A stretch of 64,000 bases of DNA from Cytophagales bacterium. GTDB taxonomy: Bacteria; Bacteroidota; Bacteroidia; Cytophagales; VRUD01. The notes beneath the pieces were generated by a model. The model had not been told where the DNA came from, did no database searches, and saw nothing but the letters and a program-made list of their open reading frames with translations. Below, in pieces: positions 961 to 62,378 of the stretch. Positions within the stretch are counted from its first letter, which is position 1. Every line of letters starts with the position of its first letter. The stretch lies in assembly GCA_019456305.1 (NCBI GenBank), contig VRUD01000012.1, positions 3,531 through 67,530 of the forward strand. The letters run 5' to 3'. The position numbers and the translations under genes were made by a program.

Positions 961-1052
961 AGGGCATCTCTAAAAACTACATATTTTTTAAAACACACCC
1001 CTTGCCCCTCTTGATAGAGGGGAATATATGGTGTAGTTTTTAGAGATGCCCT
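961..1052. repeat. 92-bp nested-hairpin element, copy A (copy B at 62288..62378)
   Basis: Outer 21-bp stem agggcatctctaaaaactaca / tgtagtttttagagatgccct, inner hairpin cccctc-ttgata-gagggg. 90/91 identical to copy B. Starts 7 nt after the Crp stop. Confidence 0.95.
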
Positions 1053-2845: not shown

Positions 2846-3361
2846 ATGAACACAATTATCTGCCCCTTCTTATTCCTGACAATTTTTAATCTCGCTCTCA
2901 CTGCCTGCTCGCAGAACGATGATCTTGATAAAAAACTAAAAAACATATTAGAATACAGCGTTCCAATTATTAAAGTAGAAGAAGCGCTAACACAGGAACA
3001 AAAGGATAATGTTTATTTTTTAGACACCCGCTCCAATGAGGAATATCTTGTAAGCCACATCCCCAATGCAATCTGGACAGGCTTTGATAAATTTAATATT
3101 CAAAAAGTGCTCGATATTCCAAAGGATGCATTAATTATCACATACTGCTCAGTAGGTTACAGAAGTGAAAAGATCGGGGAAAAGCTGCAGGAATCCGGTT
3201 ATAAAAATGTTTGGAATCTATACGGTGGTATCTTTGAATGGGTAAACCAGGGAAATGAAGTTTATAACAAATTTGACCAACCCACAGATAGCGTGCATAC
3301 TTATAACAGGAGTTGGGCAAAATATTTAGAAAGAGGGATAAAGGTAGTAAGTAGTAAGTAG
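2846..3361 (+). CDS. rhodanese-like domain lipoprotein
   Basis: Lipobox LALTAC; rhodanese core ...FLDTRSNEEYLVSHIPNAI...ITYCSVGYRSEKIGEKL...GGIFEW. ATG at 2846; the longer ORF-track start lies in repeat sequence. Confidence 0.8.
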   Translation: MNTIICPFLFLTIFNLALTACSQNDDLDKKLKNILEYSVPIIKVEEALTQEQKDNVYFLDTRSNEEYLVSHIPNAIWTGFDKFNIQKVLDIPKDALIITYCSVGYRSEKIGEKLQESGYKNVWNLYGGIFEWVNQGNEVYNKFDQPTDSVHTYNRSWAKYLERGIKVVSSK

Positions 3362-8150: not shown

Positions 8151-8241
8151 CATGGCGCATAGCGCATGGCGTCCACCCTCATTCAAGCTCTTTTTCCCCG
8201 CCAACTGGCGGGGCCATGCGCTATGCGCTATGCGCTATCGC
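8151..8241. repeat. GCATAG-family inverted repeat with central hairpin
   Basis: catggcgcatagcgcatggcg ... ccccgccaactggcgggg (8196-8213) ... gccatgcgctatgcgctatgcgctatcgc. The last codons and the TAG stop of the aminotransferase (..AIAHSA*) are made of repeat units. Confidence 0.9.
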
Positions 8242-9684
8242 TCCCAAAATAACTTTACACGCTTCTTTGATCTCTTCTTTTGTAATAATTAAAGGCGGTG
8301 TTATTCTCATAGCGCTGTCACAGTAAAGAAACCAATCAACAAAAACCCCGGTGGTGTCAGAAACCCTACCTGACTGTTCCGTATTTCTCGGGGAGATACA
8401 TTTATCAATGATAGATTTTAATTGATCATAAGATTCAAACTGAAGCGCCATCATCAGTCCTTTACTTCTGATAGCCTTGATTTTGGGATGTGCTAATAAT
8501 TCGATGAATAGTCTTTCTTTTTCCGCTACTACAGCCCCCCCCAACCCCCCCGAAGGAGGGGCTTTGCCAACGCTTTTGCCAGCCCCCCCTAAATCCCTCC
8601 TGCCACTATTTCTTACCGAATCGGTGAATGGGTGAATGGGTGAATCGGTGAATCGCTTCGTTTTCCTGTTCTCCGTTTCTCCGATTCTCCGGTTCTCCGA
8701 TTCAGGGGGGCTTGGAGTTAGAGGGGGGAGGGGGGGGCTGGCAGTTGGGCTGATTAGTTCCAAAGAAGCGAGCCCTGCAGCACAGCAGACGGGATGACCA
8801 CCAAAAGTAGTGATATGTCCTAAAACAGGATTGGTTTTTAAGACAGACATAATTTCCTTTGAAGAGATAAAAGCGCCAAGCGGCATACCCCCTCCGATCG
8901 CTTTGCCGCAGCATAAAATATCCGGCACAACGTCAAAATGCTCAAAAGCAAACAGCAATCCTGTTCTGCCAAAGCCTGTTTGAACCTCGTCAAAAATTAG
9001 AAGTGTGCCCGACTCGCTGCATTTGTTTCTCAGTGTTTTTAAATATTCTTTGTCAGGTATTATTACACCCGCTTCTCCCTGGATGGGCTCTATAATAACC
9101 GCTGCAATTTTATCTGTGATATATTCCAGATCTTCAGTGTCATTGAATTTTATATGTCTTACCTCCGGTAATAATGGCCTGAACGCTCTTTTAAACACTT
9201 CGCTCCCGTTTAATGATAAGGCGCCATGCGTAGAACCGTGATAGGCATTTTGAAGTGAAATAATTCCAGTTCTGCCGGTAAATCTTTTGGCTAATTTTAT
9301 CGCCCCTTCTACCGCTTCACTACCGGAATTAACAAAATAGGTGCATTCTAATTGAGCAGGAAGATTTTCAGCAAGCTTTTTGGCAAGCATTACCTGTGGC
9401 GTTTGCACCAATTCTCCGTAAGCCATCAGGTGAAGATATTTATCAAGCTGCTCCTTGATCGCTTTTATAACTTCTGGATGACGGTGGCCTACATTATTCA
9501 CGCCAATCCCGGATATCAGGTCTATGTACTTTTTCCTACTTGCCCCGCTTGTCCCGGTCCTATCGGGTTTTTTGGGGGCTTTTCCAAACATATATACTCC
9601 TTCTGCGTAGTCAATCTCAAGCATAGAAGGAAAATCAGAAGTTTGGGCTAAATGGTTCAGGAAATCTTGTTTTATTGTGTTCAT
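8221..9684 (-). CDS. class-III (acetylornithine/GABA-type) PLP aminotransferase carrying in-frame repeat insertions
   Basis: ISGIGVNNVGHRHPEV, FVNSGSEAVEGAIKLA, LIFDEVQTGFGRTG, CCGKAIGGGMPLGAF, GGHPVCCAAGLA. ATG at 9684. Repeat-derived segments at 8530-8757 and 9543-9567. Confidence 0.85.
   Translation of the reverse strand: MNTIKQDFLNHLAQTSDFPSMLEIDYAEGVYMFGKAPKKPDRTGTSGASRKKYIDLISGIGVNNVGHRHPEVIKAIKEQLDKYLHLMAYGELVQTPQVMLAKKLAENLPAQLECTYFVNSGSEAVEGAIKLAKRFTGRTGIISLQNAYHGSTHGALSLNGSEVFKRAFRPLLPEVRHIKFNDTEDLEYITDKIAAVIIEPIQGEAGVIIPDKEYLKTLRNKCSESGTLLIFDEVQTGFGRTGLLFAFEHFDVVPDILCCGKAIGGGMPLGAFISSKEIMSVLKTNPVLGHITTFGGHPVCCAAGLASLELISPTASPPLPPLTPSPPESENRRIGETENRKTKRFTDSPIHPFTDSVRNSGRRDLGGAGKSVGKAPPSGGLGGAVVAEKERLFIELLAHPKIKAIRSKGLMMALQFESYDQLKSIIDKCISPRNTEQSGRVSDTTGVFVDWFLYCDSAMRITPPLIITKEEIKEACKVILGAIAHSA
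8583..8744. repeat. 162-bp GC-rich palindromic element, intragenic copy A (copy B at 27238..27399)
   Basis: About 158/162 identical to 27238..27399. Built from C-run/G-run termini and 8-mer arrays (GGTGAATS)x4 and (CTCCGNTT)x3 that can pair. Confidence 0.95.
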
Positions 9685-28341: not shown

Positions 28342-28400
28342 CCCCGCCTATCCCGATCCTATCGGGGAGTACTCGGGGGGGGGGATCCCGGGTACTCGGA
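28342..28400. repeat. cluster of short GC-rich palindromes (cccgatcctatcggg; gagtactcgg; cccgggtactcgg)
   Basis: 28342-28367 is 23/26 identical to 9543-9567, which lies inside the aminotransferase CDS. Confidence 0.9.
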
Positions 28401-62287: not shown

Positions 62288-62378
62288 AGGGCATCTCTAA
62301 AAACTACATATTTTTTAAAACACACCCCTTGCCCCTCTTGATAGAGGGGAATGTATGGTGTAGTTTTTAGAGATGCCC
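62288..62378. repeat. nested-hairpin element, copy B, in the sucA-sucB spacer
   Basis: 90/91 identical to 961..1052 (single a/g difference). Confidence 0.95.

Follow-up and report, generated by a model that had tools for sequence, protein, structure and literature searches.

How an intact, conserved aminotransferase gene came to carry in-frame segments of repeated DNA is the question raised by a 64,000-nt stretch of a Cytophagales bacterium (contig VRUD01000012.1 of assembly GCA_019456305.1, positions 3,531 to 67,530 of the forward strand). This whole stretch is called the window hereafter, and all coordinates refer to it unless a contig (C) or a locus (L) is named. The coding sequence lies on the minus strand at 8221-9684 and encodes a class-III (acetylornithine/putrescine-type) aminotransferase of 487 residues counted from the ATG at 9684 (Pfam PF00202, E = 2.8e-92). 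Its orthologs, present in 29 of 31 genomes of the order and 54-68% identical, have about 393 residues. Against 11 aligned orthologs the window gene shows three extra segments, of 13, about 75 and 13 residues, and all columns invariant in a 73-sequence alignment are retained. An initial annotation made from the window sequence had proposed that the N-terminal segment derives from a repeat and that the gene holds at least two repeat-derived insertions. The proposal was borne out, the count being in fact three. The N-terminal segment, insertion 1, is most likely a passenger copy of a very small, non-autonomous hairpin repeat that landed in frame.

Insertion 1 comprises 39 nt at 9541-9579 (boundaries uncertain by about 3 nt) and is made of an outer GCCCC/GGGGC stem around a 21-nt unit and a T6 run. 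It adds 13 residues in frame at an N-terminal turn, in the context GVYMFG[KAPKKPDRTGTSGASR]KKYIDLISG read on the minus strand, as had been annotated. We compared the gene of the window genome (G000, 4.25 Mb) with those of three much closer relatives found by database search, P0001, P0002 and P0003. The spacing from AEGxY to YxDLISG is exactly 8 residues in 168 of 171 orthologs, and it is 21 in the window, 22 in P0001 and 18 in P0035; the 168 orthologs without extra residues include P0002 and P0003. Orthologs indeed have only a few residues (about 3) where the window has the insert, giving a net gain of 13 residues (39 nt) and not of 16.

Outside the inserts, P0001, P0002 and P0003 are respectively 94%, 93% and 81% identical to the window gene. 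P0001 carries insertion 1 in a diverged form, one residue longer, and the site is empty in P0002 and P0003. On DNA alignment these two lack exactly the 39-42 nt carried by the window and P0001, the empty site reading ...TATGGGAAGG|ATGGTAAAAAGTAC... and the filled site ...TTTGGAAAA[GCCCCCAAAAAACCCGATAGGACCGGGACAAGCGGGGCA]AGTAGGAAAAAGTAC.... P0001 is also the sole ortholog to have the same extra residues, and it carries the same repeat, partly decayed, at that place; no ortholog thus has these residues without repeat homology. Four-fold-site divergence is 0.10 between the window and P0001, 0.14 between the window and P0002 and 0.13 between P0001 and P0002. These values, together with the pattern of empty and filled sites, fit a single insertion on the branch common to the window and P0001. 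Insertion 1 arose after the P0002 lineage had split off and before the P0001 lineage did. A metagenome scan gave no closer relative of the aminotransferase above about 62% identity. In an unrelated lineage, P0035 (L103:2965-4203, locus GC 54%) has an independent, GC-rich insertion of 10 residues, GPALGSTADASGNTKS, at the identical beta-turn; the site is therefore generally permissive.

The 25-mer ccccgcttgtcccggtcctatcggg, to which the initial annotation had drawn attention, stands at 9543-9567 within the insert. With up to 3 mismatches allowed, the window has a single relative of it, at 28342-28366, where 0 are expected from 100 shuffles. The identity of the two, given as 23/26, counts to 22/25, or to 22/26 when base 26 (T vs G) is included. 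This intergenic match is real, and what had been overlooked is that its part 28346-28366 is a repeat unit nested in a CCCCGAGTACTCGGGG palindrome. A genome-wide search likewise places the inserted DNA in a dispersed family, with 34 core copies at up to 2 mismatches where 0 were expected. Derivation from a repeat thus stood; missing from the annotation were the extent of the match (21-30 of the 39 nt), its nature as a discrete module and its presence in other phyla.

The consensus of the unit is GCCTGTCCCGAT-NNN-ATCGGG (that is, GCCTGTCCCGATNNNATCGGG; as a single strand GCCTGTCCCGATCCTATCGGG), 21 nt with 18 specified bases, built of a 5' tag GCCTGT and a 6-bp stem CCCGAT/ATCGGG closing a 3-nt loop. 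The aminotransferase copy, GCTTGTCCCGGTCCTATCGGG, occupies 9547-9567 on the plus strand, antisense to the gene, whose frame reads it PDRTGTS. It has the 6-nt 5' tag, a 6-bp stem with one G.T pair and a CCT loop, and differs from GCCTGTCCCGATNNNATCGGG by 2 mismatches. With the loop left free, the genome holds 7 copies at 0 mismatches, 21 at up to 1 and 34 at up to 2, and third-order Markov simulations gave 0 in each case; there are 67 at up to 3 mismatches (simulated, about 1) and 126 at up to 4 (about 9). The number of 2-mismatch matches over 18 specified bases expected by chance in 8.5 Mb is about 0. At up to 1 mismatch, the window genome has 21 copies where 150 others of the order have 0-1 apiece; a reversed-pattern control gave 0.

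Immediately 5' of the aminotransferase copy, the 9 nt ACTTGCCCC at 9538-9546 on the plus strand look like an imperfect duplicate of the first 9 nt of the unit and extend the match with the family to about 30 nt. The exact 11-mer ACTTGCCCCGC occurs in the genome only here and at C127:1936, beside another unit, and CTTGYCCC is found upstream of units at C120, C84 and C92 as well as in P0001. The right-hand 9-12 nt of the insert (T6 G4-5) match nothing and pair with the left GCCCC as an outer stem. We also tried the whole 39/50-nt insert, or its de-nested host (GCCCC-T6-GGGGGC, CTTGCCCCTTTTTTGGGGGC), as the repeat, and discarded it, neither having a second copy in the genome. CTTGCCCCTCTTG proved to be part of an unrelated 74-copy element. 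The latter, taaaaactacatattttttaaaacacaccCTTGCCCCTCTTGatagaggggaatgtatggtgtagtttttag, is nearly invariant over about 75 nt and two of its 74 genome copies lie in the window (971-1043 and 62298-62370; C27:4531 and C27:65858). It looks like a miniature inverted-repeat transposable element (MITE) or the end of an insertion sequence, and is unrelated to the unit. Elsewhere in the window, a unit-like stretch with 2 mismatches, GCCTGTCCAGATTGCATTGGG, lies at 3062-3082 (C27:6592) in an open reading frame (ORF) of 189 residues and is a candidate copy only.

The intergenic copy of the window shows that the unit behaves as one piece. This copy, GCCTATCCCGATCCTATCGGG (28346-28366, plus strand), interrupts a CCCC|GAGTACTCGGGG palindrome just behind its CCCC, the two parts being at 28342-28345 and 28367-28378, and excision of 21 nt restores a sequence that has an empty-site paralog. 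The 14-nt palindrome CCCGAGTACTCGGG has 197 exact copies in the genome. All 67 copies at up to 3 mismatches were excised with each end shifted by -3 to +3 nt, and the joined flanks (13+13 nt) were sought genome-wide at up to 2 mismatches. Along the diagonal that removes exactly 21 nt, the counts were 2, 4, 10, 10, 12, 7 and 5; off this diagonal, 41 of 42 combinations gave 0. Since empty paralogs are restored almost only by 21-nt removal, the unit is a discrete nested module. Such exact 21-nt filled and empty pairs, with a junction ambiguity of at most one G, exist in at least three unrelated host repeats. Many copies are nested in this way: the unit follows the CCCC of the palindrome CCCCGAGTACTCGGGG, which has 197 copies, and occupies the loops of two other hairpin families, GCCCCCCTAAATCCCCCC^GAAGGGGGG (also GCCCCCCTAAATCCCCCC^GAAGGGGGGACTTTGCC) and GGTGTCAGGT^GTTTCCACCTGACA. 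Empty hosts are far more numerous than filled ones, which makes insertion the more economical direction. The composite GGTGTCAGGT[GCCTGCCCCGAATTCCTCGGG]GTTTCCACCTGACA is itself present at six or more sites (C49:2829, C52:13698, C87:18549, C94:20331, C101:32101 and C129:21293), mostly inside long ORFs, where it reads CQVETPRNSGQAPDTT.

The unit lives inside genes in this genome nearly as often as chance would place it there. Of 34 copies, 24 (71%) fall within ORFs that run for 200 residues or more without a stop, the genome baseline being 79.4% (p = 0.2), and the corresponding figure for the 14-nt palindrome CCCGAGTACTCGGG is 32%. Another family, GCCCCCCTAAATCC (106 copies), has 92% of its copies in such ORFs, above the 79% baseline. 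Being 21 nt long, the unit amounts to 7 codons, and 38 of 67 copies have no stop in any of the six frames, which is true of 9.6% of random 21-mers; this size and these stop-free frames explain how it can live inside genes. All six frames are used, the commonest reading, PDxIGTG, being in the frame of the aminotransferase copy. In-frame units are found in further genuine genes, coding for TruA, ClpB, Lnt, ParC (topoisomerase IV subunit A), an SLT/LysM protein and a family-5 solute-binding protein; the window-genome TruA has about 30 residues more than that of E. coli. ClpB (C78:16328 region) has two in-frame repeat inserts: a unit copy (ACPDPIGE) near its C-terminus and, in its second AAA+ domain, a loop of 10 residues, CQVETPDTT, derived from the GTGTCAGGTG hairpin family.

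Insertion 3, at about 8353-8391, adds 13 residues (SPRNTEQSGRVSDTT, residues 432-444) in the alignment with orthologs. It holds a GGTGGTGTCAG..CCTGAC hairpin (8350-8374) and a unit-like stretch GACTGTTCCGTATTTCTCGGG (8372-8392), so that the plus strand at 8350-8392 reads GGTGGTGTCAGAAACCCTACCTGAC-TGTTCCGTATTTCTCGGG, a degenerate GTGTCAGGTG-type hairpin followed by the unit-like stretch. The latter has 5 mismatches to the consensus in the window and 4 in P0002. The best matches of insertion 3 in a genome BLAST search are the unit copy at C94:96149 (26 nt, 85%) and a two-module composite on C134 (43 nt, 70%). Insertion 3 thus probably holds a degenerate copy of the 21-nt unit. It is older, since it is common to the window and P0002 and has shorter forms in P0001 and P0003. 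Insertion 2 (8518-8748; a 162-nt element, about 75 residues, 313-389) is missing from orthologs and matches many other ORFs of the window genome at 69-98% identity. Its site is a hot spot, where the inserts of the window, P0001, P0002 and P0003 each differ in length and content (L013:2259-2370 compared with 8518-8748 of the window and with L014); that of P0001 is assembled from GCCCCCCTAAGTCC-type copies. The gene therefore has three repeat-derived insertions, of which two probably come from the family of the 21-nt unit.

With insertion 1, the turn of a beta-hairpin grows from 8 residues to 21, and in an AlphaFold2 model (mean pLDDT 80) the insertion forms a loop between strands 31-34 and 52-55 with a pLDDT of about 62, at a permissive surface turn. 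The model shows insertion 2 as disordered (pLDDT below 50, residues 316-381) and gives insertion 3 a pLDDT of about 60. One may ask whether the enzyme acquires a new property through the 13-residue loop (interaction, localisation or regulation), or whether a hairpin in the mRNA, about 100-140 nt into the coding sequence, modulates translation or stability. Either would agree with a gene that is intact and conserved and keeps every family-invariant residue, with the retention of the insert in two lineages, and with a plus strand that folds somewhat better than shuffles (-7.9 kcal/mol, z = -1.96). We nevertheless regard a function as highly improbable. The closest insert-free relative is otherwise 93% identical, the loop is predicted at low confidence, and the hairpin has decayed in P0001 (-2.4 kcal/mol). 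Between the window and P0001, 4 of the 13 insert residues differ, against 6% of core residues, and a 3-nt indel is tolerated, so that insert residues diverge about five times faster than the core; the nucleotides of the insert diverge by about 0.10, just as four-fold sites do. Unrelated proteins, moreover, use the unit in each of its six frames. Judging from these comparisons, insertion 1 is apparently a tolerated, neutrally drifting passenger whose 13 residues are neutral, and we infer that it has no function for the enzyme.

The means by which the unit moves has to be weighed against two further explanations. It could be a classical REP/REPIN that owes its movement to a RAYT (Y1 HUH transposase) of the same genome, in which case the copy inside the gene would be a transposition product. 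The window genome does hold five full-length Y1_Tnp (IS200/RAYT-type) genes of about 150 residues, each flanked by small hairpins; the unit has the build of a REP, with a short 5' tag and a hairpin, and intragenic REPs are known (PMC3733652). Yet the hairpins beside these genes are of other families (GCCCTGAAAGGGC, CGCTCCGTTAGGAGCG and AACCGTTAAAACGGTT), the flanks of the five genes contain no unit over about 1.5 kb even with 3 mismatches allowed, and around 29 Y1 matches in five other unit-rich genomes (G151-G155) none was seen within about 1.5 kb save two marginal 3-mismatch matches. The unit also lacks a GTAG or CGTC tag, although action in trans would be compatible with these findings. We consider this explanation unlikely. 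Alternatively, no dedicated mobility would be involved: exchange between hairpins at stalled forks, by template switching or gene conversion, would give rise to the copies, or the 39 nt of the insert would have formed locally, by A/T-run slippage and convergence of GC-rich sequence, the family resemblance being partly coincidental. The T6/G5 part of the insert, which matches no family, the slippage that took place in its A-run in P0001, and the tandem hairpin arrays of Poribacteria described below, which resemble local amplification, speak for such an origin. Chance, however, hardly yields a 2-mismatch match over 18 bases in the genome, the further 9-nt flank is common to another unit copy, and exact 21-nt filled and empty pairs in at least three unrelated hosts require the transfer of a defined piece, whatever the enzyme. 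An origin of this kind also appears unlikely to us.

We therefore retain the passenger copy of a small hairpin repeat, against which several observations weigh. The want of units near Y1 genes, here and in G151-G155, tells against it as well. Just 21-30 of the 39 inserted bases match the unit family, the TTTTTTGGGGGC tail is in no other unit copy of the genome, and the "empty" GCCCC-T6-GGGGGC host is absent from it. The direction of the nested events, insertion and not exact 21-nt deletion, is read from copy numbers only; the estimate of neutrality is based on 13 codons; and no state intermediate between empty and filled was found among the relatives. Within these limits, the 21-nt module would be copied as one piece into other sequences, frequently directly behind a C-run on the 5' flank of other small palindromes. 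The data suggest a copy-and-paste mobility, probably via single-stranded hairpin DNA during replication or repair, and a preference of the unit for C-run/G targets. Insertion 1 holds the module together with 9 nt that look like an imperfect duplicate of the module's start, the T6 run and an outer 5-bp stem. It would have persisted because its length is a multiple of three, the module is free of stops in most frames and the surface turn is permissive, and it would since have drifted nearly neutrally.

The unit was then compared with known families of small repeats. Rickettsia palindromic elements (RPE), as summarised in PMC10969869, are about 100-150 bp long and encode a conserved peptide in one frame. 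They resemble the unit in being selfish palindromic repeats that sit in frame within housekeeping genes unrelated to one another, where they add peptide segments at the surface and leave the protein active, and, like the insertions of the window aminotransferase, several may occur in one gene. The unit is similarly in frame in intact, unrelated genes and absent from orthologs (aminotransferase, TruA, Lnt, solute-binding protein, ParC and SLT/LysM protein). It differs by its 21 nt (39 nt with surroundings), its use of six frames and its host, a Bacteroidota (Cytophagales), and no sequence relation to RPE was seen; neither a length of 100-150 bp nor a peptide conserved in one frame was found. 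REPs and REPINs (PMC3733652, PMC3116915, PMC6006769) are, like it, hairpins of 20-40 nt with a short 5' tag that stays unpaired; they too form multicopy families specific to a lineage, and some of the copies lie in coding DNA and supply additional residues. As a short imperfect palindrome with many dispersed copies (34-67 against 0-1 expected), the unit agrees with them. The intragenic REPs of the GTAG and CGTC super-families have a conserved GTAG (or CGTC) tetranucleotide at one end (PMC3733652), which the consensus GCCTGTCCCGATNNNATCGGG does not. A RAYT gene flanked by the repeat (REPtron) was found in none of six genomes (G000 and G151-G155). Whereas REPs are mainly extragenic and lineage-specific, the 18 specified bases of the unit recur in several phyla, and the unit is predominantly extragenic in other phyla (16% in ORFs of at least 200 residues) but not in the window genome (71%).

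MITEs are likewise non-autonomous and multicopy and can give in-frame fusions; the unit is smaller by an order of magnitude, lacks terminal inverted repeats apart from its own hairpin and shows no target-site duplication. Nor did it reach a gathering threshold of Rfam. The closest described behaviour is that of the small dispersed repeats (SDRs) of cyanobacteria, as related in PMC4390886 and PMC3116915: very small modules located precisely inside other short repeats, with a transposase known for neither them nor the unit. In Nostocaceae, for instance, SDR5 interrupts the HIP1 palindrome precisely, with three bases of HIP1 before it and the fourth right after it (PMC4390886, citing Elhai et al. 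2008, Genome Res 18:1484). The unit too is a module of about 20-30 nt lying precisely in other repeats, in filled and empty versions. It departs from the SDRs in phylum and sequence, and its copies in the window genome are mostly intragenic and codon-compatible (21 nt). Its survival in frame is akin to that of RPE (PMC10969869) and of intragenic REPs (PMC3733652).

An exact scan for the unit, with one genome per species, detected it in at least 120 stretches from many phyla. Copies numbered 81-86 in the complete chromosome of Candidatus Poribacteria G151, 28 in Candidatus Poribacteria G152, 33 in the Desulfobacteraceae metagenome-assembled genome G153, 13 in the hydrothermal "BMS3Abin03" G154 and 15 in WOR-3 G155, and a reversed-pattern control gave 0 everywhere in these multicopy genomes. 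At the loci of other phyla, 20 of 124 unit copies (16%) lie in ORFs of at least 200 residues, against 73% of control positions. The unit is thus widespread and normally extragenic, and its near-random presence in genes is peculiar to this Cytophagales lineage. Companion modules are shared as well: arrays of Poribacteria have in common with the window genome the CCCGCCTGT 9-mers, tandem CCTGYCCCGATNNNATCGGG hairpins and GGGGATTTAGGGGG. In the intergenic arrays of G151 (L254:218-340 and 990-1110; L255:180-270 and 790-1050), a conserved leader aagtccccctgacaagtggtacatccc comes first, followed by CCCGCCTGT 9-mers, tandem 20-nt hairpins and GGGGATTTAGGGGG; the leader is not in the window genome.

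Two ideas on these copies were abandoned. An empty host of the GTCATTCCCACT[unit]GAAAGTGGGAAT composite was sought in G154 and not found, so that precise nesting is shown for the window genome only. Targeting of the lagging strand in G151 was considered in view of a strand count of 55 plus and 26 minus, but no switch occurs relative to dnaA at 4.9 Mb. Searches of databases and literature were also made. Against Rfam, the window unit gave only sub-threshold generic hairpin matches, and six unit loci of other phyla only a tRNA. A full-text literature search for the unit sequence returned chance primer matches only. In IMG/VR the unit was present in just 4 contigs, which gives no sign of a phage vector.

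What is new here is the series of filled, empty and decayed sites, the exact 21-nt excision test, the occupancy of ORFs compared with a baseline, and the cross-phylum distribution. The aminotransferase provides a natural series (empty, filled and decayed filled site) of selfish hairpin DNA lengthening protein loops. With the unit genic here and extragenic in other phyla, a difference in tolerance or in targeting becomes testable, and the identity of the unit across phyla, with no linked transposase, points to a conserved mechanism moving or generating such hairpins. It is conceivable, though we advance it only tentatively, that GCCTGYCCCGAT-NNN-ATCGGG is a pan-bacterial mobile hairpin module of 21 nt and 7 codons, without a linked transposase and with the same companion modules (CCCGCCTGT and GGGGATTTAGGGGG). 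In this one lineage, it would have escaped its intergenic confinement and would insert almost randomly in coding DNA, because its length and composition make the insertions in-frame, stop-free loops of 7 residues. If so, the module would represent a general, unrecognised source of loop insertions in proteins and would offer a handle on the enzyme that moves such modules.

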